Below are positions 36,794 through 60,016 of a DNA stretch of 60,016 bases, piece by piece. Every line of letters begins with the position of its first letter. Position 1 is the stretch's first letter. This DNA comes from a virus. Lineage: Duplodnaviria > Caudoviricetes. Under the pieces are notes generated by a model. That model was not told the DNA's origin and made no database searches. It saw only the letters and a program-made list of their open reading frames with translations. Location of the stretch: positions 1 through 60,016 of IMG/VR virus record IMGVR_UViG_3300045767_000001; one strand, given 5' to 3'. The position numbers and the translations under genes are program-made.

Positions 36794-38125
36794 TTATGAG
36801 GTCGGCCCCCCATCTGCGTTCGGCTTGCCTGTCGGGGTACCTGGAGCATTGATTGAGCCCGGCAACGCGCTCTCCGCTCCGCCTTCTGGGCTCGCGAGGA
36901 AGTCCGCGTGCGCCGAGGCGACCGGAGCGAAGATGCTGTCCGCGCCCTCCTCGTCGCTCTTGGGTAGCCCGAGAAGCTCGAGGCCCGCGTTCGGAGAGAG
37001 CACCGATGCCTGGCGGAGCATCGAGACGAACTGGCCGCGCATCTGGTCGTTCGTCTCGAACAGTTCCTTGACGCGGCGCACAACGTAGTAGCCAGCCGGC
37101 AGAAGGTGGGTATCCGCGCGGTCAAGGCGCCCGGTGTAGCCTTTTAGTGCGAAGACCGCGAAGCCCATGATGATTTCCTGAAGGCCCTTGCCCCACACGC
37201 CACCCTGGTCTGGTGTGTCACCGACGAGGAACCCCGGCACGCCGTAGAAGCCGGTGATCTCGCCGCGGCTGAACGACCGGGACTGTAGGAGCTGCGCGGT
37301 CTCCGGGTTGATGCTGATCTGCTGCCATTTGGCTGCGGCGTCCAGCACGATCGGCGTGTGGGCCTGGGCGAGGCCGCCGTGCTTGGTGAACAGCTCGTCC
37401 TGCACCCGTTTGGAGTCCTCGGGCCGCAGCGGCTTTTCGATCGAGAGGATCCCCGAGGGGTGCATCGCCTGGGGGTAGAAGCGGTCGGAGTACTCAGCGG
37501 CGGCCAGGGCGTTGCCGAAGCCGTGGACGCCGATCTCGATCGGGTTCAGGCCGACGAGGCCGCCGCCGAGCGCGATCCACGGCGTGTGGATGATGTCGGA
37601 CGCCGGGATTTCCCGGCCTACCGCACCGACTTTGTAGACCTTGCGCCCTTCGCTTTCTTCGACCTTCATGATCGCCGGGTTCACCACCTCGACGACGTCG
37701 GGGTTCCCTAGGCCCTTTCCGCCCGCGCGATCGACGACATGGGTAATCATGTTGCCGTTCAAGCCGAGTGACGCGACCCGGCGGAAGTCGCCGTCCTCAC
37801 GGTCCATGTCCGCGTACGGATCGACGATGACGTCCGGGGGATCGACCTCCTTGTCTTCCGGGGAGCGGCGGTTGCCGACCATCCGGTAGACGTGGGGCTC
37901 AAGGCCCGCAGACGTGTCTCCCAGGATGCGGATGCAGGACGAGACGACCATCAGCGAGAGCACCGTGCGCTCGCTGACCGTGACGCCGGCCGTCGAACTG
38001 TTGTAGGCGCTTGGTGGCGGTATGGCCGCCGGGTCGCCGATCCAGCCGCCCCAGCCGCCTTGACCGATCGGCCAGCCGCGCTGCTGCTGCATCTGGCGCT
38101 GCGCGCGGCGCGCAAGGACGGTCAC
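36794..38125 (-). CDS. Portal protein (HK97 family)
   Basis: V.SC.RIL, L.GN, GLNPI, PSGIL and FYGVP motifs; GTG start 38125. Confidence 0.9.
   Translation of the reverse strand: MTVLARRAQRQMQQQRGWPIGQGGWGGWIGDPAAIPPPSAYNSSTAGVTVSERTVLSLMVVSSCIRILGDTSAGLEPHVYRMVGNRRSPEDKEVDPPDVIVDPYADMDREDGDFRRVASLGLNGNMITHVVDRAGGKGLGNPDVVEVVNPAIMKVEESEGRKVYKVGAVGREIPASDIIHTPWIALGGGLVGLNPIEIGVHGFGNALAAAEYSDRFYPQAMHPSGILSIEKPLRPEDSKRVQDELFTKHGGLAQAHTPIVLDAAAKWQQISINPETAQLLQSRSFSRGEITGFYGVPGFLVGDTPDQGGVWGKGLQEIIMGFAVFALKGYTGRLDRADTHLLPAGYYVVRRVKELFETNDQMRGQFVSMLRQASVLSPNAGLELLGLPKSDEEGADSIFAPVASAHADFLASPEGGAESALPGSINAPGTPTGKPNADGGPTS
38073..38125 (-). repeat. 53-bp direct repeat, copy 1 (portal 5' end)
   Basis: Identical to 38677..38729. 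Confidence 0.95.
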
Positions 38126-38613
38126 GGCAGCGGTGCACCGGCCGCCGCAGTCCAGCCGACCGGCTCTACGTCGTCGATGTCCTCCGTGCGGTCGTTGACG
38201 CCGAACAGCAGCTCGCGCGCGGTTCGGTGCCGCCGTCGCTCGGCGGCGACCCGCTTGGCTTTCGCGCGCGAGTCGTCGTCCCACTCGCCATAGATGACGC
38301 CCTCGGGGTCATCGCGGCAGTCCCGGACACCGGATATGAAGCAGTCGCCGGGGTTGTACTCGCGCGCTCCGTCGAGCGCGTTGAGGATCTTCTCGCGCAG
38401 ATCCCGCTCGACAGGCTCGCCGGCGAGGAGTGCTCGGAGCGCCGCGACGCCGGACGCCGGAATGCCGATCCAAGCGTAGGGGAACTCGTACTCGTCGTGG
38501 TCCGTGAAGGTCGTCATCTTCAGCGCTAGCCCGTGCGGGTGGAAGAACTGACGGTTGGCCTCTTGGAGGAAGCCGATCTCTTTCAGCTCACGCGGCTCGA
38601 TGTACTTCGCCAT
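38122..38613 (-). CDS. Hypothetical phage protein inserted between the portal-start repeats
   Basis: GFLQEANRQFFHPHGLAL...DCRDDPEG; GGAGG RBS. Confidence 0.7.
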   Translation of the reverse strand: MAKYIEPRELKEIGFLQEANRQFFHPHGLALKMTTFTDHDEYEFPYAWIGIPASGVAALRALLAGEPVERDLREKILNALDGAREYNPGDCFISGVRDCRDDPEGVIYGEWDDDSRAKAKRVAAERRRHRTARELLFGVNDRTEDIDDVEPVGWTAAAGAPLP

Positions 38614-38676
38614 CTGTGCCTCCCTCTGCATCGGTCGCCCATGTAGCCGCCCCGGCCTCCCTGGCTGATGCAGATG

Positions 38677-38729
38677 CAGCCGCGCTGCTGCTGCATCTGG
38701 CGCTGCGCGCGGCGCGCAAGGACGGTCAC
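38677..38729 (-). repeat. 53-bp direct repeat, copy 2 (starts a 48-aa portal-N mini-ORF ending 38583)
   Basis: Identical to 38073..38125. Confidence 0.95.
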
Positions 38730-41032: not shown

Positions 41033-41788
41033 TCAACCTCGGATCTTGCGTCGAGCCCGTGCCCGCCGATGGTTCGGCCTGCCCGCCGTCGCACAGTTGC
41101 ATTTCTCATGCTCGGGGCCTGCGTACCGCGAACGGTCCTGGTCCACATGCCCCAGGTGCCACGGTTCTCCCGACAGGATCAGCCGGCCACAACCGACGCG
41201 AGCGCAGACCACTCCGCCGGCCGCGACCTTCCGCGCCCACTTCTCGCGCAGCTTCTGGTGATTCGTCCCATAGCCGCGAGCCGTCGACGTGCCCTGCGAC
41301 CTCGAGCGCCCACGAACCTTCCGCTGCTGCGCCGCGACGATCGACTTACACGTCGGGCAGTACCAGTGGCGCGGCGTGATCGTCGGCGCCGAGTTACATC
41401 GTCGACATACGCGAGGCTGCCCCTGACCGTGCTTGCGCCGCGACGCCTCAAGCTTCGCATCGCGGTTCACCGCGTAGTACTGGCGACTGCGCTTCGCGTC
41501 GCACTCGAGGCACCGGCTCGCGTAGCCAGATGCCTTGCTCGCGTCCCGCACAAACGCGGCCGCTGGCTTGACCACGCGACAGATCGGACAGCGCCTCGAA
41601 GGGGCGTTTTTGGTGCCGGAGAGAGAAAAATTGGTGCTGCGCGGGTCATCGTCGTTGATATTGGGAGTACGACCTACCCCCCCTCCCCTTCTCATCGTGT
41701 GTGTGCTGGTCATAGGCACTCCTTGTTCGGGGAGTGATGGGACGGTTGGATGGTTGGATGGTGGAGACCCCATGCACCCTGCTACCAT
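41033..41788 (-). CDS. HNH endonuclease associated with packaging (start uncertain)
   Basis: ARGYG..H.KLR, CAR..CG, WHLGH and GPEH..CN motifs; N-terminal zinc fingers. Confidence 0.72.
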   Translation of the reverse strand: MVAGCMGSPPSNHPTVPSLPEQGVPMTSTHTMRRGGGVGRTPNINDDDPRSTNFSLSGTKNAPSRRCPICRVVKPAAAFVRDASKASGYASRCLECDAKRSRQYYAVNRDAKLEASRRKHGQGQPRVCRRCNSAPTITPRHWYCPTCKSIVAAQQRKVRGRSRSQGTSTARGYGTNHQKLREKWARKVAAGGVVCARVGCGRLILSGEPWHLGHVDQDRSRYAGPEHEKCNCATAGRPNHRRARARRKIRG

Positions 41789-41797
41789 CCGTTACCA

Positions 41798-42181
41798 ATG
41801 GCTATCAAGCAGATCAACCTACGGCTCGACGAGTCACTGCTGACCGCGATCGATGACATGCGAGGTCTTGTGCCCCGCAATGCCTGGATCAAAGACGCCT
41901 TGGAGCAACGCATCGGCGGCGACATGACTGTGTCTTACGAGTACACACAGGCCGCTGGACTGCCGCGCCTTCTCAGCGGAGTGTCTAGACCTGTGACCGT
42001 CGCTGACCTGAAGGGCGATTTCCTCGCCGGTCTGTCGGTCCACGCAGCAAGCCACTCTTCAGCCCACTCACACTCGGTCGAAGCCATCGGATCGGCGTCA
42101 AGCAGTCCAGTCACGCCGGGTCGTGTCTCGCCGAAGCTGCGTTCCGGCATCAAACCGCGACCGAAGGGAACGACGAAATGA
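41798..42181 (+). CDS. Ribbon-helix-helix DNA-binding protein with mosaic C-terminal tail
   Basis: KQINLRLDESLL..ID..RG...RNAWIKDAL; extended -10 TGcTACCAT upstream. Confidence 0.7.
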   Translation: MAIKQINLRLDESLLTAIDDMRGLVPRNAWIKDALEQRIGGDMTVSYEYTQAAGLPRLLSGVSRPVTVADLKGDFLAGLSVHAASHSSAHSHSVEAIGSASSSPVTPGRVSPKLRSGIKPRPKGTTK

Positions 42182-42543
42182 TCGAGATTCCGGGAGCGAT
42201 AACCACGATCAGGGTTCCGCTCGCCGCCGAGTCACATCCAGCGCAAGGCGACGCGTTCGGGACATATCACTACGCCTTCTCAGCGGAGTGTCTAGATCGC
42301 TTCGCCGAGCAGGCCGCTGGACTGCCGGTGACCGTCAACTTCAGTGGCGATCCCATCGGCAGAGTGGCCCAAGCCGAGCGTACCGGGGATGGCGTCTCCC
42401 TCGTCGTCGAGATCAAAGACGACATCGCCCAGCGCATCGCGAGCCCTGCGTTCCAAGCCATCGACGATCAGTGGAACGACGACTACACCGAGCGGCTGAT
42501 CCGCGTCGCTGACCTGAAGGGCATCGAGATGACCGATGACTAA
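42178..42543 (+). CDS. Hypothetical protein (weak prohead-protease-like pattern)
   Basis: ATGA coupling; LPV.VNF...PIGRV. Confidence 0.6.
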   Translation: MIEIPGAITTIRVPLAAESHPAQGDAFGTYHYAFSAECLDRFAEQAAGLPVTVNFSGDPIGRVAQAERTGDGVSLVVEIKDDIAQRIASPAFQAIDDQWNDDYTERLIRVADLKGIEMTDD

Positions 42544-42913
42544 GCTCGACGAACTCCGCGAGCGCTACGCATGGTTCGAGGACGAGCTACAAGCCGCACG
42601 CAAGGCCGGGAAGATCGACTCCCAACACGTCCGGTTCTTCGTCTCCGAGGTGTGGCCTATCTTGCTCGACGAGAACGATGAGCCGATCCTCAGCGAGGAC
42701 GGTGAGGTTCAGTATGACCGGGATGCGAACCCGTTCTACTTCGGCACCGCCCAGGCGTACAACTTCGTCGAAGGAACGGCGGGAATCCCCGCTGGGATGA
42801 CGCGATTCCAGCTTGAGCTACTCGACGAGACCTCGCATGACCATTTCCTGGAGTGCGTCTGTGAGGATCTGTCTCGGGAGCTAGCGAACGCGGTCTCATC
42901 CCGCGTTGGGTAG
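42536..42913 (+). CDS. Hypothetical acidic protein
   Basis: Coupled ORF, 125 aa. Confidence 0.6.
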   Translation: MTKLDELRERYAWFEDELQAARKAGKIDSQHVRFFVSEVWPILLDENDEPILSEDGEVQYDRDANPFYFGTAQAYNFVEGTAGIPAGMTRFQLELLDETSHDHFLECVCEDLSRELANAVSSRVG

Positions 42914-43010
42914 CGTGCGTCAAGCGGCCGGCGTGTAGCGCTCTCCGGCGTCGGCTTGTGGACCCGCCAGAATACGCGAAGACCAGCGCGTCGATTGGCG
43001 AATGGATCCA

Positions 43011-43280
43011 TCACCACTCCTCATCGCACAGCCACGGCGCGATCCACGTGGCAACGCGCTCGCGGAGTCGGATCGTCCGCACGCGCAGCCAGAACCGCGC
43101 ACGACGCATGCGCGGCGCAAGCGGAGGGTCAACAGCAAAGCGGTCAGACAGAAGCTGGTTCGAGATGCGAACCTCGCCAGCGGTCGTCCTCGCGATCGGG
43201 ATCTTGACCGCCATCCTCCCCTCCGGGAGGTTGTACTGCCGGAACCCGGACTCGCCGATCGGCATCATTCCGTCGTCCAT
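43011..43280 (-). CDS. Hypothetical protein
   Basis: Operon-coupled ORF. Confidence 0.5.
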   Translation of the reverse strand: MDDGMMPIGESGFRQYNLPEGRMAVKIPIARTTAGEVRISNQLLSDRFAVDPPLAPRMRRARFWLRVRTIRLRERVATWIAPWLCDEEW

Positions 43281-43283
43281 CTA

Positions 43284-43556
43284 CTACCTGCCAGGTGCGC
43301 GCGGGTCCAACGCCAGGTCCCACAGCCAGTCTCCGAACACGGACTGGACGGCCGGGTCTTCGCTGATGTGATGTGCCTCTTCAACGCGATCCTCGCCCGC
43401 CTTCTGCGAGTAGGACGTGACTGTGCCGTCACGATCCACGGAGAAGCCGGAAACGGAAGTGCAGACGGCCTGCCACTCCTCGCCGGTCTGTCGGTCCACG
43501 AACTTCCAGCCGAAGTTCATGTGTGGCTCGTCCTCGTCCTCGGTCGGCTCGCTCAT
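43284..43556 (-). CDS. Hypothetical protein
   Basis: ATGA coupling; 90 aa. Confidence 0.6.
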   Translation of the reverse strand: MSEPTEDEDEPHMNFGWKFVDRQTGEEWQAVCTSVSGFSVDRDGTVTSYSQKAGEDRVEEAHHISEDPAVQSVFGDWLWDLALDPRAPGR

Positions 43557-44332
43557 GCTGGCTCCAGAGACACGGACTCGGCGAGGGGTGCGTCCGAGGC
43601 AAGTCCCGTGGACTGGCCTGCCCCGTTAGCCTCGGGTGGCGCTTGGTCATGGGACCGTCTCGACGTGTCGAAGATACCACCACTGTCAACGGAAAGCGAT
43701 GCGGCTAGGGATTCGAGGGCTCTGCCGGTGCGTTCCAGCCTACGGCGCGACTCGACTCGCATGAGGTGGCGACGCTCCATCAGACGTTTGTGGGCCCTCT
43801 GCATAGCTATGAGCTCATTGCGCACAGGGGTCTCTCGCTGCTCTCGGGCCTTCTCGCGTGCCTGCTCGATGGCTGCGCGAGTGGGACCCATTATCGGGGC
43901 GGCCGGGTCGATGCTCATGGCTCCCGAGCTAGTGTAGTCCCGGTTGCGGCCGAGAAAAACGTCTCCGTCGTCTGCAGTGTGGTTGCCGAGCATGAACGCC
44001 ACCAGCCACTCGCCGTCCGCTTCCGCAACCGCCGTGACCGTGATCATGACCGGCTTGTACGGCTCATCGTCCTGGATCGGCTCGACCAAGCGCAGGAGGT
44101 TCAGGATCTCTTGGCGTCTCGTCGATGCTGTCATTTCGCTGCGTGCCTGGAGGTAGCGGTCTGACAGTTCGCTTTCGCTGCGCGGCTTACACGCCAGCCT
44201 GTACGCGTGACGGGGTTTGACCGGGCACGGCTTGGACTCACCGAAGATGCCTGTGCGTTTCGGCAACGTCAACGCACGATGGTTCGGAGGCCGGCGGATC
44301 TGCTCGAATACCGCGAACGGCACAGAGATCAT
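43553..44332 (-). CDS. Hypothetical protein
   Basis: 259-aa ORF in the operon. Confidence 0.6.
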   Translation of the reverse strand: MISVPFAVFEQIRRPPNHRALTLPKRTGIFGESKPCPVKPRHAYRLACKPRSESELSDRYLQARSEMTASTRRQEILNLLRLVEPIQDDEPYKPVMITVTAVAEADGEWLVAFMLGNHTADDGDVFLGRNRDYTSSGAMSIDPAAPIMGPTRAAIEQAREKAREQRETPVRNELIAMQRAHKRLMERRHLMRVESRRRLERTGRALESLAASLSVDSGGIFDTSRRSHDQAPPEANGAGQSTGLASDAPLAESVSLEPA

Positions 44333-44458: not shown

Positions 44459-44683
44459 TCACGCGTAGCCGGACCCATTTGCTGTGGATCGCGTCCACCG
44501 TAGATTAGGTATCCACTCCAACGCCGCTTTCATCCCCGCGTGCTCCTCGTACACCTTCCGCATGTCGTCCGGCATCTCCGCCTCGGCGTCGCCGCTCAAT
44601 AGCTGCTCAAGGTCCCTGGCGATGCCCTCCAGGGCGCCGGCGCACACCGCCGCGATCTCACGCAGATCCACCGTTGTGCTCAT
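44459..44683 (-). CDS. Hypothetical protein
   Basis: ATGA coupling to the MTase stop. Confidence 0.5.
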   Translation of the reverse strand: MSTTVDLREIAAVCAGALEGIARDLEQLLSGDAEAEMPDDMRKVYEEHAGMKAALEWIPNLRWTRSTANGSGYA

Positions 44684-46155
44684 GCCGCCATCTCCATCAG
44701 GTATTCCCCTGCAAGGCGCCCGAGTTGGACTTGAACTCCATCGCCGAGAGCGGACAGTCTGGATCGCTCCACCCGGCGGGCGCGCCGATCATCCACTCGA
44801 CGAACGAGGGGCTCAGGCGCAGGTCCGTGAACCTGCTCCCACCGTCGGATTGCGGGTCGGTACTCGCCCCACGGGAACGCGGGAGACGGTCGAGCTGGGG
44901 ACGCACTGCCGCCCCCGGCGTCGGGCTCTGATTGTGGCCGCCCTGCGAGGTTGCCGGCGTCGGTAGGAGCGACATCACCTCCGCGCGCAGCTCCCCCCAG
45001 TTCCCTTCGCGCGGGAGGCCCTGCTTGGCGATGTTCGCTCGCGGGGTCGGCAGCAGGCGTTTGATCTGCGCCTCCTGCTCCCCGCCGGCGCCCCCCTGAT
45101 TCCACAGGGCCGATGTCGGCGTGCGCAGCATCCTCACCGTCTCGTTCAGCGACCGGCCAGTGGATCCCTGGCGCGCCCGCCGGCCACGAGTCGAGTTGGG
45201 TCCCTGCTCCCCAGCCGCCCTGGTCGGTGTCGGCAGCAAGGGCGATGACCCGATCACGGAGGTGCGGGGCGCCAAAGGCTGCCGCCGGTATGCAGTCCCA
45301 CTGACAGTCGTACCCGAGCGCGGCCAGGTCTCCGAGAACAGTCCCCCAGACGGCTCCGTCATGGAGGGCAAGGATGTTCGCCACATTCTCGACGAGGACC
45401 CATCGGGGTCGTAGCTCGCCAGAGCCGCGTCTCGGGGTGGCCGAAGCCCTCGCGCTTGCCCGCAGTGCTCGCGCCCTTGCACGCTCTCTCGGGAAGCCTC
45501 CTGCGATGAGATCCACGCGCGGCACATCGAAGAGACTTCCTTGGGCATCACCCCCATCCGGCTCATCGCGCATGGGCGAGTTGTGCTTGTGCCACTCGTG
45601 GTGGCAGCGTTGACAGAGCCACCGAACCCCGAGTGGCTCGTTGTAGTCGTCGTGGTGGGCTTGGATCGGCGAACGACCGTCGCTATACGGCTCGCCCGCG
45701 CCGCCGCACTCCTCGCAGAGCGATGGGCGAACGAGACGGCCCGACGCGAGGGCCTTCTCGACCTTGTTGTGCGCCCAATCCTCGCCGACGGGACCACCGC
45801 GATAGAAGTGGCTGTCATCGCCGAAACGCTGCTGAGGGCGCATCTCCACGCCCGCGTTCTTCATGCGTTCCCATAGCGCTTGGCGCGTGATCGGAAACCG
45901 CTCGGCGATCGCCTCGGCACTCATCCCCTGGGCGTAGAGACCCAGCGCCTCGGCAAACTGCTCATCGCTCAATCGTGGCAACGCGCCTCCGATCCGTCGA
46001 ACATCGTCGTAGATGGGCACTCTGGGCCACCGGAGACCGAGGAGTTCTCGTCGCCACGGGTCGATCTCGCAGAGCCAGGAGTGCTCCCAGCCAGCGAGGG
46101 TGAGCCCGTAGGCGAGCAGGCCACATCCGTCGAAGAGTCCGCCGACGGTCGGCAT
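44680..46155 (-). CDS. C5-cytosine DNA methyltransferase alpha chain with HTH-HNH insertion; catalytic Cys absent from this frame
   Basis: LFDGCG (I), CEID, DLIAGGFP (IV, lacking C), ENV (VI), GAPH.R.R (VIII), LGDGV (X). Confidence 0.8.
   Translation of the reverse strand: MPTVGGLFDGCGLLAYGLTLAGWEHSWLCEIDPWRRELLGLRWPRVPIYDDVRRIGGALPRLSDEQFAEALGLYAQGMSAEAIAERFPITRQALWERMKNAGVEMRPQQRFGDDSHFYRGGPVGEDWAHNKVEKALASGRLVRPSLCEECGGAGEPYSDGRSPIQAHHDDYNEPLGVRWLCQRCHHEWHKHNSPMRDEPDGGDAQGSLFDVPRVDLIAGGFPRERARARALRASARASATPRRGSGELRPRWVLVENVANILALHDGAVWGTVLGDLAALGYDCQWDCIPAAAFGAPHLRDRVIALAADTDQGGWGAGTQLDSWPAGAPGIHWPVAERDGEDAAHADIGPVESGGRRRGAGGADQTPAADPASEHRQAGPPARRELGGAARGGDVAPTDAGNLAGRPQSEPDAGGGSASPARPSPAFPWGEYRPAIRRWEQVHGPAPEPLVRRVDDRRARRVERSRLSALGDGVQVQLGRLAGEYLMEMAA
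44697..45386 (-). CDS. Overlapping alternate-frame beta chain of the split C5-MTase
   Basis: SETWPRSG, repeated LLPTP and LSPSFVEWMIG.P.GW (motif IX), as in M.EcoHK31I-type enzymes. Confidence 0.7.
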   Translation of the reverse strand: MWRTSLPSMTEPSGGLFSETWPRSGTTVSGTAYRRQPLAPRTSVIGSSPLLPTPTRAAGEQGPNSTRGRRARQGSTGRSLNETVRMLRTPTSALWNQGGAGGEQEAQIKRLLPTPRANIAKQGLPREGNWGELRAEVMSLLPTPATSQGGHNQSPTPGAAVRPQLDRLPRSRGASTDPQSDGGSRFTDLRLSPSFVEWMIGAPAGWSDPDCPLSAMEFKSNSGALQGNT

Positions 46156-46223: not shown

Positions 46224-46850
46224 TCATCGCACCGCCTTCGACATGTCGGGCGGCACGGCTTTCTGTTTGCGATAAGGACGCCTGCCTGACTTCCTCCGGA
46301 GGCGCCTCGAAACTGTCTCGGCATGAAGCGGTTCGCCCCACCACACACCAGCGACGATCCCGATCGCTTCGAGCGGCAAGCCGGCGTCATGCAGCTCGCG
46401 CATTCGGGCCAGCTTCCACTCCGCCGAGACCCGCGTCAGCGGCTTGCGACCTACACGCCGGTCATGGCTGCGGCGAGAGTTGCGCTGGTTCTTCTTTGCG
46501 AACGAGACCGCATACGCCGGGTCGGTCCAGGTCCTCACCGTCGTCAGGGACGGCCTCACCCCGAACTCTTGCTCCAGTAGTTTGCAGGCCCGATAGGCGG
46601 TCCAGCCGGCCTGCACATGCTCGAGGGCACGCCTCACAACCGCCGTCGAGTAGCGGCGACCATGGCCCACCCCGGAGAACGTGTTCATCGCCATCCGCGG
46701 GGGCCGAGGCTTGATCGACGGATCATCAACGCCCACCGGAATGCGGCCAGCCGCCCATCGCCACGTTGTCGTGCCCTGTGGTAGGCGTTGCGGAGTCGGC
46801 GAACGAATCGTGGAGCGCTCACGACGCCTCCTCATAGACGGGGTATCCAC
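46224..46850 (-). CDS. HTH DNA-binding protein (start uncertain)
   Basis: YS..VVRRA.E....GW.....PSLTTVRTW; second HTH-like segment. Confidence 0.55.
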   Translation of the reverse strand: MDTPSMRRRRERSTIRSPTPQRLPQGTTTWRWAAGRIPVGVDDPSIKPRPPRMAMNTFSGVGHGRRYSTAVVRRALEHVQAGWTAYRACKLLEQEFGVRPSLTTVRTWTDPAYAVSFAKKNQRNSRRSHDRRVGRKPLTRVSAEWKLARMRELHDAGLPLEAIGIVAGVWWGEPLHAETVSRRLRRKSGRRPYRKQKAVPPDMSKAVR

Positions 46851-46861
46851 TTAGATGGCCC
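46840..46861. promoter_or_regulatory. 22-bp dyad motif, copy 1 (inverted)
   Basis: GGGGTATCCACTTAGATGGCCC is the reverse complement of 48282..48303. Confidence 0.6.
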
Positions 46862-47697: not shown

Positions 47698-48288
47698 TCA
47701 GATCGCCAAAGCCATCTGTGTATCCCAGACCGTCCAGGCCGCGCCAACGCCGCCGGAGCCAGGAAAGAGGTCGTCGAGCCGGTCGCCACGCTGCGCGCCG
47801 AGGCAGGCGAAAAGCCAACGAGAAAACTGCGGCGGCTTGGCGCCCGTGACGTTATGCTGCCGATGGAGCGTGTGCGGCGGGTGGACGAGCGAGTCACGAA
47901 CGTCCTTCGGTGTGTCTTCGTCGCGTGGTCGCCCGCGCCAGAGGATGACCGGCTCCCAGGTGTATTGCACTCGGACGCTGAACGGCGGCGCACCGCCAGT
48001 CTTGACCCACGCGAGTACCCGCACATCGCTCGGACAGAGTGCGAGGAGTTCCTGTAGCCACTTGGAGCCAGTTGAGAGGGCCCAGCCGTCGGGATACTCG
48101 CCAACGAGGCGCTCCACCAGCTCCCGGTGATCGACCTCACCCGCGTAGTCCGGGTGATCGCCATACAGGCGCTTGGACTGCCCCGGATACGGCGGGTCAG
48201 CATAGGCGAAGACCATCTCGCCGTGAAGCGGGCAGCAGTCGTTGACGCCATCGGGTTCGGGTAGGCAGGTGCAGTTACCGCGGGCCAT
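47698..48288 (-). CDS. Amino (N6-A/N4-C) DNA methyltransferase
   Basis: YADPPY catalytic motif; GAKP...DDLFPGSG SAM motif. Confidence 0.8.
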   Translation of the reverse strand: MARGNCTCLPEPDGVNDCCPLHGEMVFAYADPPYPGQSKRLYGDHPDYAGEVDHRELVERLVGEYPDGWALSTGSKWLQELLALCPSDVRVLAWVKTGGAPPFSVRVQYTWEPVILWRGRPRDEDTPKDVRDSLVHPPHTLHRQHNVTGAKPPQFSRWLFACLGAQRGDRLDDLFPGSGGVGAAWTVWDTQMALAI

Positions 48289-48303
48289 CTAAGTGGATAC
48301 CCC
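48282..48303. promoter_or_regulatory. 22-bp dyad motif, copy 2
   Basis: GGGCCATCTAAGTGGATACCCC overlaps the MTase start codon. Confidence 0.6.
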
Positions 48304-48519
48304 ATCCTCATAGAGCTCGGGATGACTGGCTTCCAAATGCGCCCGCATCTCAGCCACGGTTGTCGGACCACGCGTCGTCCGCGCTGACGCCACAAACGGC
48401 GCCTCCCGCTCCGAAAAGCCAGCACACCGAGCACGCTCCATCTCAGCCTGAAACCGATGGCGAGAAACCCACTCAGCGGCTTCACGCTCGATCTGGGCCA
48501 GGTGGCCGTCGCGGCTCAC
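48289..48519 (-). CDS. Hypothetical protein
   Basis: GTGA coupling; 76 aa. Confidence 0.5.
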   Translation of the reverse strand: MSRDGHLAQIEREAAEWVSRHRFQAEMERARCAGFSEREAPFVASARTTRGPTTVAEMRAHLEASHPELYEDGVST

Positions 48520-49376
48520 GCTGACTCCAGCAGCTCGACCAGCTTGTCTGAGGTTGCGAGGACCCACGCATCCCACGCATCCCGCGCAGCCCGCGCAGCC
48601 CGCGCAGCCCGCGCAGCCCACGCATCCCACGCAGCCCGCGCATCCCACGCATCCCACGCAGCCCGCGCATCCCACGCATCCCACGCAGCCCACGCATCCC
48701 GCGCATCCCACGCAGCCCGCGCATCCCACGCATCCCGCGCAGCCCGCGCAGCCCGCGCATCCCACGCAGCCCGCGCAGCCCACGCAGCCCGCGCATCCCA
48801 CGCAGCCCGCGCAGCCCACGCAGCCCGCGCATCCCGCGCATCCCGCGCATCCCGCGCATCCCGCGCATCCCACGCATCCCGCGCAGCCCGAGCGATGTCG
48901 TCCTCCTCGTCGCTCGTCATCGGCTCGCCGGCAGCACGTCGCTCATACCCCTCGGCGACGCGCCCGCACACGACTTTCACATCCTCCGCATCCGTGGCGT
49001 TGGCGAGCCCCCACCTCTCGTCCACGATCAGCCAGGCAGCGAACCTTGGCCACACCGGCGACAGGTCCGCCCCGGGCCGAATGGCACCCATGAACCGCTC
49101 CGGCCAAAGCCTACACAGCTCATCGGGCAGCGACTCGAAGATGCCATCCTCGATATGTGCAAGCTGAGCCGGGATCCCGAACTCACTCTCATAGCGCATG
49201 TGGCCACCCTCGGGATCCTTCAACAGGCAGCCAACGGCGCAGTAAGCGACCTTGCCGTTCCGGCGGACGTACGCGCCCTTCGCCAGCTCATCAGCCAGAC
49301 GATGCGCTGCGATCATCGCCATCGTCTCATCCTTCAACTCCGGCTTGCCGTGGTAGGCAACCAGTGCGCTCATCAT
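48516..49376 (-). CDS. Phage protein with low-complexity (W/R)(D/A)A repeat tail
   Basis: AYHG.PELK, CAVGC, GIP..LA...D.IFE and F..AI..GADLS motifs; GGAGG RBS. Confidence 0.75.
48563..48890. repeat. 9-bp tandem repeat CCC[A/G]CGCA[T/G], about 36 units
   Basis: Directly visible; only two positions vary. Confidence 0.95.
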
Positions 49377-49563
49377 GATCCTCCCTTGCTCGATGATTGA
49401 AAATGGCCCCTGCGCCTCGCTGGCCCCAAACACCGAAGGGCCGCGCGAGGTTCGCTCCACCGCTGGTGGCAGTACCTACGCAGGGGGACCCACAGAAGGG
49501 TTGGTAGTTCGGTAGGTGAGCTAGAGCTTGGAGCTTGAGTTGGAGTGTTTCGCATGAGTTGGT

Positions 49564-51603: not shown

Positions 51604-52316
51604 GCTGCCGCTTTCGCTTTTTCGGCTTCAACTGCGGCCATAAGGAACTGGCCGATGTGCTCGGTGTAGGCAGGCGGGATAGCCTCGGCCAACTCGTCGT
51701 AGGTCATCCAGTCAATGCCCATCGCGTCGGGCCACTCGTGCTTGTCGGCGGCGTTCCCGTAGACCTGCACGACTGTTGAGAGTCTGTGTTCACCGTTGGG
51801 TCGCCAGCCGGTCCAGTACCGGCGCTCGGTGAAGTGGCGGTGCTCGCAGGCTGTTCCCTCGAGATAGACGTTTGACTCGAACAGGCGATGCCGCCGTAGC
51901 GGCAGCCCAAAGCTCGTTCCGCAGACGCGCACCGGGTCCAGGAGGGGCGCGCCGACGACGTTCTCGATGACATACGGCAAACCCGTTGCAATGAGCAGCG
52001 CCCGCGTGTCCTCGATCAGCTTCGCGTGGCGCTGCGCCCGGCCCAGCTTTGCGTTGACAGCAGCAAGCTGCGTGTAGCCCTGGCATGGCGGCGAGGCATG
52101 GATGGCGGCGACTCGCTTGAGCGGAAGGGTCAACGCGTCGGCCTGAATGAACTCATCGCCGCAGTAGTTCGGCTGCGGCTCGATGTCCACACCGACGACG
52201 TAGAACCCCGCACGCTGGTAGCCCTTCGCTGCACCGCCGGCGCCCGAAAACAGATCAAGCAGCCGTGGCCGCTCATCTAGAGGCGGGATGCCGGAGGACA
52301 CGCCACGGTCACTCAT
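51600..52316 (-). CDS. C5-cytosine DNA methyltransferase (short, intact)
   Basis: LLDLFSGAGG, ASPPCQ, ENV, RRHRLF and EAIPPAY motifs. Confidence 0.88.
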   Translation of the reverse strand: MSDRGVSSGIPPLDERPRLLDLFSGAGGAAKGYQRAGFYVVGVDIEPQPNYCGDEFIQADALTLPLKRVAAIHASPPCQGYTQLAAVNAKLGRAQRHAKLIEDTRALLIATGLPYVIENVVGAPLLDPVRVCGTSFGLPLRRHRLFESNVYLEGTACEHRHFTERRYWTGWRPNGEHRLSTVVQVYGNAADKHEWPDAMGIDWMTYDELAEAIPPAYTEHIGQFLMAAVEAEKAKAAA

Positions 52317-52516: not shown

Positions 52517-52746
52517 TCGTGTACCTCCGAGGCGGGATGCCGGAGGACACTCGCATCGAAGCGATCTGGTGGCGCGTCCTGCGCAGCATTCTGCCGGCTG
52601 GCCTCGCGCACCGCGAGCTCCTCGCTCTCGAACGGCCCAGCGACAGCGAGTCCCGTGCGCCCGTTGACCACATAGAAGCCCGGGCGTCGCAAACGCTGCG
52701 CGCGCTGCGCCTGCTGCGCAATGCTCTTCCGGCCCCTAGGCGTCAT
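52513..52746 (-). CDS. Hypothetical protein
   Basis: Coupled ORF. Confidence 0.5.
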   Translation of the reverse strand: MTPRGRKSIAQQAQRAQRLRRPGFYVVNGRTGLAVAGPFESEELAVREASRQNAAQDAPPDRFDASVLRHPASEVHE

Positions 52747-54244: not shown

Positions 54245-55038
54245 CGCAACCCACCCCCCGGGCATGAATCCCAGAAGCCGCACATGCGATGGCTGCACCA
54301 CCAGGCACCCGGAACGGCCATGCTCCAGTTGTCCGTTTCAAGGCGCCACGCCATTTCGGCCGCCACCGCGTACAGTCGGTCTACGAACATGTCCAACTGC
54401 CTGTCAGTCCTCACGGTGGGGACGATCTCGGCGTAGGGCGTCTTGGTCTTGACGAGCGTGTGGAACTTGAACACCGGCGCTGGGTTGCCCTCTGCCCTAC
54501 GGGCGAGCAGGTAGGGAGCGACCGCGATTTCGGTGTCCGCGACCGCTTTGCTCATCCGGGTGCCACGGACCTTCCGGTCAACGACGGCCCCGTCGGCTTC
54601 CTCCAGGTCGATGTAGCCGAGGAAACCCCAGTCCACGTCTGCGAGCTCCAGCTTGAACTCGCGCTCCGCGCTCACGGGCTCCAGGTGCGGGGCGACGTCC
54701 CGGTCGTATGCCTCGATCGCCTTGACGCCCGTGTCCTTGACGTCGCCGGGCTTGTCTTGGCCCCACTCGATTTCCTCGCGCTCGGAGCGCTCGTCCCACT
54801 CGTCACTGAACACGTCCCGCACATCGCCCGGGCGCTCTCCGGACTCGATCTGCATACTGTCGGCCCACGCCTCTGCGGCATGAACGGCGGAGCCGAGGAC
54901 CATGCTGCCGCTCGGCGCTTCGTATTCACGATCGACATACCGGCGTCGCCAGCGCTCGGGGCAGCGAAGGAAGGTAGAAAGCGACGTGGCCGACAGGTGA
55001 TCGACCGGCAGCGAGCGGGGTATCTCTAGCGTGGTCAT
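54241..55038 (-). CDS. PD-(D/E)XK (RecB/Cas4-like) exonuclease
   Basis: HLSATS...CP, GSAVH, GYIDL, VVDRK and C..CGF..SC motifs. Confidence 0.85.
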   Translation of the reverse strand: MTTLEIPRSLPVDHLSATSLSTFLRCPERWRRRYVDREYEAPSGSMVLGSAVHAAEAWADSMQIESGERPGDVRDVFSDEWDERSEREEIEWGQDKPGDVKDTGVKAIEAYDRDVAPHLEPVSAEREFKLELADVDWGFLGYIDLEEADGAVVDRKVRGTRMSKAVADTEIAVAPYLLARRAEGNPAPVFKFHTLVKTKTPYAEIVPTVRTDRQLDMFVDRLYAVAAEMAWRLETDNWSMAVPGAWWCSHRMCGFWDSCPGGGLR

Positions 55039-55730
55039 ATCGCCAGGTCCGCCGGATCCGCACGGTCGATGCCGGCGAGGATCGCGTCGATGTACTTGGC
55101 TGGCAGCCGGTCCATCGCCCTTCTCAGCCACCCTTCGGCGTCGGACTGCGAGTTGAAGTCGCGCGGCTCGGATTCGGTGGCAGCAAGAACGATGTTGGCG
55201 AGGTCGATCGGCGGGAGTCCCTTCTCGCCAGCCTTGCCGTTGATCAACCCCCGCTGTTTCGCCGTGGCGGTAAGCTCTGTCTGCTGGGCCGGACCGGAGC
55301 TGACACGCGCCTCGCCGTTTGACCGGCTGGCCCTCGCCCCCTCGTCGTCCTCATCAGCACACAGGCCGAGGACCGCGAGGATGGTGTACCGGCGCATGTA
55401 GGTGATCGCCGACCCCATCCCCTGCGAGTCCTGCTTCGTCAAGATCAGCGGGACGTCGCCCTCAATCTCCACCGACGTAGAGGCATGGATCAGCCGGTAG
55501 CGCAGCATCACGCCCTCCGGCCGGTAGACAGGCATCGTGACCCACAGCAGCCCATGCTTGTTCAACGCCGGCATGACCTGCTCCATCAGCGCGTCGAGGG
55601 ACAGGTACTTGGAGCGGAACGCTGGGTTGATCTTGTCCTTGGCGAGCGTGATGCTCTCGCACTGAACCGCCAGCAGGGCGTCCATGATCGTCGCGTGTTG
55701 GGGCGCCTCAACAGGCTCGACGGCGCTCAT
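55035..55730 (-). CDS. ERF-family single-strand annealing protein
   Basis: NPAFRSKY.SL and QGMGSAITYMRRY...GL..DEDD motifs. Confidence 0.88.
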   Translation of the reverse strand: MSAVEPVEAPQHATIMDALLAVQCESITLAKDKINPAFRSKYLSLDALMEQVMPALNKHGLLWVTMPVYRPEGVMLRYRLIHASTSVEIEGDVPLILTKQDSQGMGSAITYMRRYTILAVLGLCADEDDEGARASRSNGEARVSSGPAQQTELTATAKQRGLINGKAGEKGLPPIDLANIVLAATESEPRDFNSQSDAEGWLRRAMDRLPAKYIDAILAGIDRADPADLAI

Positions 55731-56080: not shown

Positions 56081-56102
56081 GGGCCATCAAAGTGGATACC
56101 CC
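56081..56102. promoter_or_regulatory. 22-bp dyad motif, copy 3 (1 mismatch)
   Basis: GGGCCATCAAAGTGGATACCCC. Confidence 0.6.
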
Positions 56103-56482
56103 GTCTTCGAGGAGGCGAAGATCAAGCGGACGGTGACCGGGTCCACTGCCTCGATCGTCGGCGTCTCCTGCCCAATGATCACCGCGTCGCAGACTTGGGC
56201 GCGGTCCGTGAATAGGTTGTAGAAGATGTCCCCACCGAAGTGCCGGTGAAGCTCGAAGTGCCCACCGGACTCCACCTTTTGCCACCGGCCGCCGAGAGCC
56301 TTCGCGCGCACCACCAGTTCCTCACGGCTGACGAGGTACTCAAGCGCGTAGAACGATCCAGTCGGCAGTTCCGCGTCGGGATGCCCCTCCAGGAAGTCGG
56401 CGAACGCCCGGAGTCCCGCGATCTTCGCGGCACGCTCCTCCTCGGCCTTCTGCTCCACTTCGTCATCTATGATGCTGCTCAT
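56087..56482 (-). CDS. Hypothetical protein
   Basis: IAGLRAFADFLE.HP actinophage-like motif. Confidence 0.6.
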   Translation of the reverse strand: MSSIIDDEVEQKAEEERAAKIAGLRAFADFLEGHPDAELPTGSFYALEYLVSREELVVRAKALGGRWQKVESGGHFELHRHFGGDIFYNLFTDRAQVCDAVIIGQETPTIEAVDPVTVRLIFASSKTGYPL

Positions 56483-59873: not shown

Positions 59874-59903
59874 ACCGTACCGTAGCCCGCCCACCCCTGT
59901 CAA
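59874..59903 (-). promoter_or_regulatory. Sigma70/SigA-type early promoter
   Basis: TTGACA (59903..59898), 18-nt spacer, TACGGT (59879..59874), upstream of cro. Confidence 0.7.
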
Positions 59904-60016
59904 GGGTCTGGCTGAAAGAATTTTGCATCTGCAGCTCGAACCGCGCCCGCCGCGCCGGCAGCTCCCAGGCTCTTCGAGGCCGCGTGGTTTGTCAGCGCAC
60001 ACATCGCCTAAAAAAA
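59890..60016. repeat. Direct terminal overlap, right copy
   Basis: Identical to 1..127. Confidence 0.95.

Follow-up and report, generated by a model that had tools for sequence, protein, structure and literature searches.

What could build part of a phage gene from short, exact copies of its own neighbors, joined in shuffled order and without losing the reading frame? The question is raised by a small plus-strand RHH-like gene in which the initial annotation saw either a repeat-less array of guide-sized fragments or a series of template-switch insertions that had built a new gene tail. The window (the whole stretch of DNA that was analyzed) comprises 60,016 nt, has a GC content of 65%, and constitutes a complete virus record in IMG/VR. 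Its two ends share an exact 127-nt overlap (1-127 equals 59890-60016), and the assembly is circularly closed, in the IMG/VR class of direct terminal repeats. A crude ORF set contains 88 predicted ORFs, nearly all of them on the minus strand.

We scanned 64 of the 88 predicted ORFs against PHROGs. The structural matches comprise terminase, portal, protease, major head protein, tail sheath, tape measure, and baseplate, and further matches comprise an endolysin, two DNA methyltransferases, and a DnaD-like loader. The scan also identified an Erf-like annealase (55035-55730, minus strand) and three HNH/endonuclease VII genes. Among the 64 scanned ORFs, none matched a polymerase, reverse transcriptase, cas, or Argonaute gene. 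One minus-strand ORF (44680-46155) matches HNH endonuclease families over residues 73-196 and DNA methyltransferase families over residues 210-489, which identifies it, as far as family matches go, as a putative methyltransferase with an HNH module.

Several repeats were noted elsewhere in the window. Exact 53-nt direct repeats (38073-38125 and 38677-38729) lie around a minus-strand ORF (38122-38631) between the portal and terminase genes, and this ORF may be an inserted or duplicated gene cassette. A long tandem array of 9-nt units (CCCGCGCAG, CCCACGCAT, and similar) occupies 48563-48890 within a minus-strand ORF (48516-49460), which consequently encodes a three-residue repeat protein. A 22-nt sequence recurs in inverted orientation at 46840-46861, 48282-48303, and 56090-56106, at or beside the ends of ORFs 46224-46850, 47698-48288, and 56087-56482, and is a candidate shared regulatory site. 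Finally, an exact 22-nt direct repeat (52280-52301 and 52529-52550, 249 nt apart) is located at the junctions of small minus-strand ORFs.

The RHH-like gene, gene 2, and gene 3 form a small plus-strand operon, flanked by an HNH gene and by minus-strand ORFs to which no function could be assigned. The genes of the locus are as follows, the RHH-like gene being defined by its ORF, its frames, and the homologs P0002 and P0004:

41033-41788, minus strand: HNH gene, ending 10 nt from the start of the RHH-like gene
41798-42181, plus strand: RHH-like gene, 127 aa, made up of a domain, a linker, and a conserved C-terminal motif
42178-42543, plus strand: gene 2, 121 aa, source of patches 1-4 and of a possible sixth piece
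42536-42913, plus strand: gene 3
43011-43280, minus strand: gene A, with homologs P0006, P0007, and P0008
43284-43556, minus strand: gene B, 90 aa, an orphan and the source of patch 5

The TGA stop codon of the RHH-like gene overlaps the ATG start codon of gene 2 (ATGA). Gene 2 has no match in Pfam, PHROGs, NCBIfam, or PADLOC; no toxin family is matched, in contrast to the downstream gene of a type II toxin-antitoxin pair with an RHH antitoxin. For gene B, the examination of three candidates yielded no homolog besides gene B itself. A simple scan detected no sigma-70-like promoter within 41400-43700.

Within the RHH-like gene, we examined the five copies that had been reported from the sequence. 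All five coordinate pairs are exact and all lie on the plus strand; the copies adjoin one another with no spacer repeats, and the ORF (41798-42181) stays open across them, as first described. The pieces, together with the segment that contains them, are:

41948-41965, plus strand: patch 1, exact copy of 42310-42327 (18 nt), gene 2 codon phase kept (QAAGLP)
41966-41989, plus strand: patch 2, exact copy of 42273-42296 (24 nt), in another phase (RLLSGVSR here, AFSAECLD in gene 2)
41993-42001, plus strand: patch 3, exact copy of 42328-42336 (9 nt), gene 2 phase kept
41998-42016, plus strand: patch 4, exact copy of 42504-42522 (19 nt), in phase (VADLKG)
42021-42044, plus strand: patch 5, exact copy of 43477-43500 (24 nt), antisense to the coding sequence of the minus-strand ORF 43284-43556
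42045-42080, plus strand: stretch of 36 nt within the lineage-specific segment, without a template in the window
42081-42089, plus strand: possible exit piece (sixth), matching 42455-42463 (9 nt), in phase, at the right edge of the lineage-specific segment
41951-42084, plus strand: lineage-specific segment of 134 nt, delimited by the joint 41950 to 42085 in a relative's contig

Patches 1 and 2 abut directly, patches 2 and 3 are separated by three letters (CCT), patches 3 and 4 overlap by four nucleotides (CGTC), and four letters (GATT) stand between patches 4 and 5. The sources of patches 1 and 3 adjoin (together 42310-42336), and patch 2 plus CCT thus forms a 27-nt interruption of a single copy. 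Relative to their source genes, four pieces are in sense orientation and the fifth is the reverse complement of the gene B coding sequence, as the initial annotation had recognized. The gene 2 phase is kept by three of the four gene 2 pieces (patches 1, 3, and 4), or by four of five if the doubtful exit piece is counted; the latter is a lone 9-nt match, which is at chance level. Every source lies on the same strand and to one side, 307-1456 nt downstream (gene 2 at +307 to +506, gene B at +1456). Collectively, about 90 of the 134 nt in the segment are exact copies from nearby in the same genome. For 42045-42080, no template was found in the window, with best ungapped matches of 10-15 nt, which is the background level of exact matches there.

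With the 127-nt terminal overlap and the tandem arrays left out, the window contains eight dispersed exact repeat pairs of at least 18 nt, and the patches account for four of these eight. In the 100-nt tile 41951-42050, 82 nt lie in dispersed exact repeats of at least 16 nt; when the window was simulated 20 times with a second-order Markov model, the densest tile of each simulation had 16-22 nt. As a further background, we used 4325 tiles from 11 other phage loci (109,082 nt, with three loci near-identical), for which we drew on terminase relatives (L005-L014) that are at most 57% identical. The highest tile in these loci reached 60, a value that resulted from local hairpins and not from a patchwork. 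The mosaic of exact copies is therefore far beyond chance.

The same DNA was recovered from other sequence data. The Logan contig of X1, which is possibly the source sample, is identical to the window over 41654-43900. X2 is an RNA library that comes from another sample and another study; its 202-nt contig corresponds to 41925-42126 without a single difference and spans every junction, and a contig of a further RNA library (X4) covers 41706-41930. The RNA-library contigs may represent transcripts or carried-over DNA, their strand and ends not being visible.

A 3001-nt contig from an unrelated soil metagenome study (X3) reveals a relative that lacks the segment. This contig matches the window over 41700-41950, continues with 17 other letters, and resumes at 42085-42541, where we counted 12 differences over 457 nt across gene 2 (approximately 97% identity). 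The net difference of 117 nt (134 - 17) corresponds to 39 codons and is in frame. The relative's protein (P0002), found independently, is 88 aa long from the shared start, 39 residues shorter than the protein encoded in the window, and its ...YEYTQ is joined to IGSAS... by six residues only. The 17 letters of the relative are absent from the window, even when three mismatches are allowed. Since both genomes carry private letters at this site, the change was a replacement.

Comparison with this relative also refines the junctions. The first three nucleotides of patch 1 (CAG) are common to the relative and constitute an entry microhomology, and the last five nucleotides of the exit piece (CATCG) are likewise common and would constitute a return microhomology. 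Microhomology at the switch points thus amounts to 3 nt on entry, 4 nt where patch 3 meets patch 4, and 5 nt on exit. Patches 1 and 2 are joined without any, and the two remaining junctions contain the untemplated letters CCT and GATT. At 42327, the relative has T in place of G, and against this T allele, CCT plus patch 3 (41990-42001) matches 42325-42336 exactly over 12 nt. It may follow that the copied template had T at this position, whether because T was ancestral or because the template belonged to a relative replicating alongside; the reading hangs on a single base.

Among close kin, the segment is absent from the X3 contig and from P0002, which together represent one relative, with no outgroup at the DNA level. 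We found no relatives in the phages collection (megablast), in IMG/VR (queried with gene 2, the RHH protein, and P0004), among JGI metagenome contigs (gene 2 and the RHH alignment), or in GTDB genomes (the alignment). Because IMG/VR, JGI, and GTDB yielded none, the sample of kin consists of one DNA contig and a few proteins. One IMG/VR match (L015) was rejected because it is an unrelated transposase-like ORF of low GC content, with nothing in common but the letters GIKPRPKG. Of the one-off scar, absent from relatives and untranscribed, that had been named as a refuting outcome, the absence is borne out in the one relative seen, whereas the sequence does occur in an RNA-library contig.

We modeled the RHH-like gene product using AlphaFold2. 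The following parts were distinguished by the model, its structural matches, and the homologs:

41798-41935, plus strand: predicted RHH-fold DNA-binding domain, residues 1-46
42128-42169, plus strand: conserved C-terminal motif SPKLRSGIKPRPKG at residues 111-124, matched exactly in P0002 and retained in P0004

In the model built from 76 sequences, residues 1-40 have a pLDDT of 77-83 and form an extended N-terminus followed by helices at 12-22 and 27-38, a predicted strand-helix-helix fold of about 45 residues. The top structural matches are RHH proteins, namely NikR (Z 4.3, rmsd 2.5, 43 residues aligned) and the PutA RHH domain (Z 4.0), and further RHH neighbors include DinJ, CopA, TacA, AmrZ, omega, Arc, ParG, and MetJ. 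The best 50 structural matches are almost all RHH proteins, with Z values of at most 4.3; such low values are expected for so small a domain. Foldseek returned four matches with E values of 1.2-7.6, three to NikR (one of them at E 1.2) and one to a putative transcription factor.

At the sequence level, the protein reaches no curated family, with no match in Pfam, NCBIfam, or PHROGs, and Pfam RHH_1 appears below its cutoff in 3 of 34 family members. A profile search nevertheless identified 315 small proteins with an RHH-like domain at E ≤ 1e-3. A search of PDB sequences with a four-sequence profile returned only ankyrin-repeat entries (E 0.4-0.6), which we dismissed. P0004 is only 33% identical overall, yet it keeps the last ~14 residues, and P-x-PKG endings are present in 4 of 18 distant family members that we read. 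The tail that carries the motif has a pLDDT of 71-77 without secondary structure in the 76-sequence model. Between domain and motif, the stretch varies in length and sequence in every member (proteins of 88-127 aa), and linker residues 41-100 have a pLDDT of 50-60 in both models; to judge from these models, the linker is probably disordered.

The N-terminal strand-helix-helix, the flexible remainder, and the stop/start overlap are features that this protein shares with RHH regulators and antitoxins of the CopG/Arc/MetJ type with disordered C-terminal tails. It differs from them in remaining below all Pfam RHH thresholds, in that the downstream gene 2 matches neither a toxin nor any other family, and in the C-terminal P-x-PKG motif that is conserved in part of its family. 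Because this motif is conserved in frame and the stop codon overlaps the gene 2 ATG, the tail is translated. The patchwork is thus an in-frame expansion of a tolerant linker by 39 amino acids and not a new end of the tail.

These findings bear directly on how the segment arose. The scar, that is, the replacement of 17 letters by a mosaic of local copies, is directly observed; from its anatomy, we infer that it is probably a recent, lineage-specific templated insertion produced by serial template switching and that it is a mutational scar rather than a device. During synthesis of the plus strand, whether in replication or in break repair, the growing 3' end would have left its template at 41950 and then used at least four neighboring stretches of that template strand one after another as new priming sites, first in gene 2 and then in gene B. 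Between 9 and 24 nt would have been copied each time, with 3-4 untemplated letters added on two occasions. Another 36 nt would have been copied from a template that this genome has since lost or never contained. The polymerase would then have returned at 42085, leaving 134 nt in place of 17 nt. Either one complex event or several events close in time could have produced this outcome. Exactly 39 codons would have been added without a stop, so that the protein would have stayed intact and translationally coupled to gene 2 and the variant could survive. Selection would have kept the frame only, and the new peptide, which consists of in-phase gene 2 snippets, one out-of-phase snippet, and one antisense gene B snippet, would be a by-product.

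The serial template-switch insertions proposed in the initial annotation are supported by the relative that lacks the segment, by the in-frame length, by the local same-strand sources, and by microhomology at three of the switch points. The accompanying proposal of a new gene tail did not hold, since an internal linker was lengthened and the last ~14 residues are conserved in the relative and in distant homologs. Since the source of patch 3 begins where that of patch 1 ends, the excursion to patch 2 came back to the position it had left. The absence of any difference in approximately 90 copied nucleotides, compared with 2.6% divergence across gene 2, suggests a young event; had it been as old as the split between the two phages, about two differences would be expected, which argues weakly that the event is probably younger. 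GC skew on the plus strand is negative from 36 to 60 kb, which fits the plus strand being the lagging nascent strand. If so, the exposed lagging template ahead of the polymerase would span roughly the distances observed between the segment and its sources.

Other observations fit serial template switching less well. The polarity of the change rests on one relative, and a deletion in that relative, though less parsimonious, could also explain the difference. Two junctions are without microhomology and two contain untemplated letters, 36 nt have no known template, and the 9-nt exit piece taken alone is at chance level. Moreover, template switching does not predict that three of four pieces keep the gene 2 phase, which may reflect only the survival of variants with an open frame.

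Insertions of this type have been described in other systems. MMBIR-type templated insertions use nearby templates and microhomology and can involve several switches (PMC8421209), and templated insertion and serial template switching are also treated in PMC5453318 and PMC7954356. The scar described here resembles those of MMBIR, FoSTeS, and serial replication slippage in that several short nearby copies are gathered at one point, in that a sister lineage is without the insertion, in the 3-5 nt of microhomology at some junctions and untemplated letters at others, and in the return near the point of departure. The MMB-TI signature searched for in PMC8421209 consists of inverted copies with templates within 100 bp; here, in contrast, all copies are direct and the templates are 0.3-1.5 kb away. 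Unlike eukaryotic MMBIR scars, this one is in a phage and its product is in frame, inside a coding linker. Phage mosaicism by illegitimate or relaxed recombination, as with Rad52-like or Erf annealases (PMC3945230), offers a second comparison, given that an Erf-like annealase is encoded in the window and the locus is mosaic between relatives. However, that process swaps gene-sized modules between genomes, whereas the present site was assembled from 9-24-nt pieces that all derive from genes of the phage itself.

The junctions are also where another origin, repair by end joining, finds its evidence. Ku/LigD-type end joining by putative host machinery could have sealed a break in the linker with captured short fragments from the neighborhood and with untemplated letters. 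It would account for CCT and GATT and for the two junctions without microhomology, and any of the three HNH-type nuclease genes, one of which lies 10 nt from the start of the RHH-like gene, could supply the breaks. In bacteria, NHEJ is described as adding small numbers of untemplated nucleotides and as able to trap DNA fragments in the break (PMC6379672). We nevertheless regard this origin as improbable. All five pieces have one orientation and come from within 1.5 kb to one side in a 60-kb genome, and a 27-nt source appears to have been split and then resumed at the interruption, a pattern not expected if free fragments were ligated. In addition, the capture shown in PMC6379672 is of a whole cassette and not of 9-24-nt pieces.

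The retained gene 2 phase could also be explained if the gene 2 region was duplicated in tandem behind the RHH domain and internal deletions then left the pieces as islands. Patches 1, 3, and 4 and the doubtful exit piece keep this phase, and most follow one another in source order. The arrangement is not colinear, however: patch 2 lies inside the copy of 42310-42336, and the piece from 42455-42463 follows the piece from 43477-43500. At least six precise deletions and an inversion of order would be needed, all recent enough to leave zero differences, and no remnant of a duplicate is visible in the relative, all of which makes this history very unlikely.

Template switching could in principle have occurred on RNA instead of DNA. 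Reverse transcriptases switch templates readily and add untemplated letters. One of them could have jumped between phage transcripts, and repair could then have incorporated the resulting patchwork cDNA into the genome; break repair by microhomology-mediated end joining has been reported for a bacterial group II intron-like reverse transcriptase (bioRxiv 10.1101/2022.03.14.484287). Nothing at the locus requires an RNA intermediate, however, and no reverse transcriptase was found in the 64 of 88 ORFs scanned against PHROGs. Because patch 5 has plus polarity and gene B is encoded on the minus strand, a read-through or antisense transcript would also be needed. We consider this route highly improbable. 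The exactness of the copies, along with the lack of a reverse transcriptase in the PHROGs scan, likewise distinguishes the segment from a diversity-generating retroelement.

A different kind of explanation is that the sequence functions as RNA, with the fragments acting as guides or decoys, or with patch 5 pairing the RHH mRNA with the gene B mRNA. A plus-strand transcript would indeed have 24 nt of perfect complementarity to the gene B mRNA, the region is represented in both RNA-library contigs, and phages with CRISPR-like RNAs have been reported (bioRxiv 10.1101/2024.10.29.618823 and 10.64898/2026.06.01.729453). As in CRISPR mini-arrays and phage crRNA-like RNAs, short matches to phage genes stand side by side. 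Here, however, there are no repeats, leader, or scaffold, and the pieces lie inside an ORF: no repeated unit was found in 41900-42100, and the pieces, uneven in length (9-24 nt), abut or overlap. Four of the five are sense, and the relative that is 97% identical keeps gene 2 without the segment. No cas match was found in the 64 ORFs scanned against PHROGs or in six ORFs scanned against PADLOC, and no Argonaute was found in the former; as for the transcripts, the RNA-library contigs may be carried-over DNA. The sole Rfam match (43028-43088, E 0.7) is below threshold, and the predicted RNA fold of 41925-42126 is not unusual (z = -0.83). We accordingly give the repeat-less guide array suggested in the initial annotation, and a functional RNA in general, very little credence.

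An assembly or amplification artefact, including the chimera that the initial annotation had considered, is extremely improbable: the window is a metagenome assembly with a 127-nt terminal overlap and X1, its best DNA counterpart, may be the same sample, but X2, from another sample and study, is identical across all junctions, the frame is kept, and 9-24-nt pieces joined without shared k-mers would be unlike de Bruijn mis-joins.

Serial template switching, as the preferred origin of the segment, leads to the possibility that such events have recurred at this locus. The X3 contig lacks gene 3, with five letters replacing 42542-42878. The same contig contains exact pieces of 34 nt (43235-43268) and 40 nt (43318-43357) that abut out of order and are displaced to between the equivalents of 42944 and 43015, just outside the stop codon of gene A; they may be a second patchwork or the remnant of a rearrangement. 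The gene A homologs P0006, P0007, and P0008 have their C-terminal 55-60 residues in common and unrelated N-termini, an alignment pattern that points to a mosaic breakpoint inside gene A. Within the RHH-like gene itself, 41887-41915 (helix 2 of the RHH domain) matches 42411-42439 in gene 2 at 23 of 29 nt and in phase (IKDALEQRI and IKDDIAQRI). This match exceeds all 300 codon shuffles (maximum 22) and may be an older, decayed patch or chance. Collectively, the absence of gene 3 from the X3 contig, the displaced X3 pieces, the gene A N-termini, and the 23/29 match hint that the locus is prone to such events.

A broader reading is that short-patch template switching on the same strand has happened repeatedly in this phage lineage and generates new coding sequence. 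It draws on the 34- and 40-nt pieces of X3, the 23/29 in-phase match, and the presence of an Erf-like annealase and three HNH nucleases, and we regard it as doubtful. If it is true, this small operon would repeatedly swap peptide-sized pieces with its neighbors, and new linkers and peptides, some of them out-of-frame or antisense, would naturally arise in this way.

Template-switch scars are already known from eukaryotes and bacteria, and the patchwork is a neat but ordinary mutational scar of this known kind. It illustrates that a dense cluster of guide-sized self-matches need not indicate an RNA-guided system. It also provides a clean natural example from a phage of how a complex copying error can add 39 residues of new protein in one step, with a peptide that is part donor-frame, part out-of-frame, and part antisense, while the conserved domain and motif on either side remain intact.
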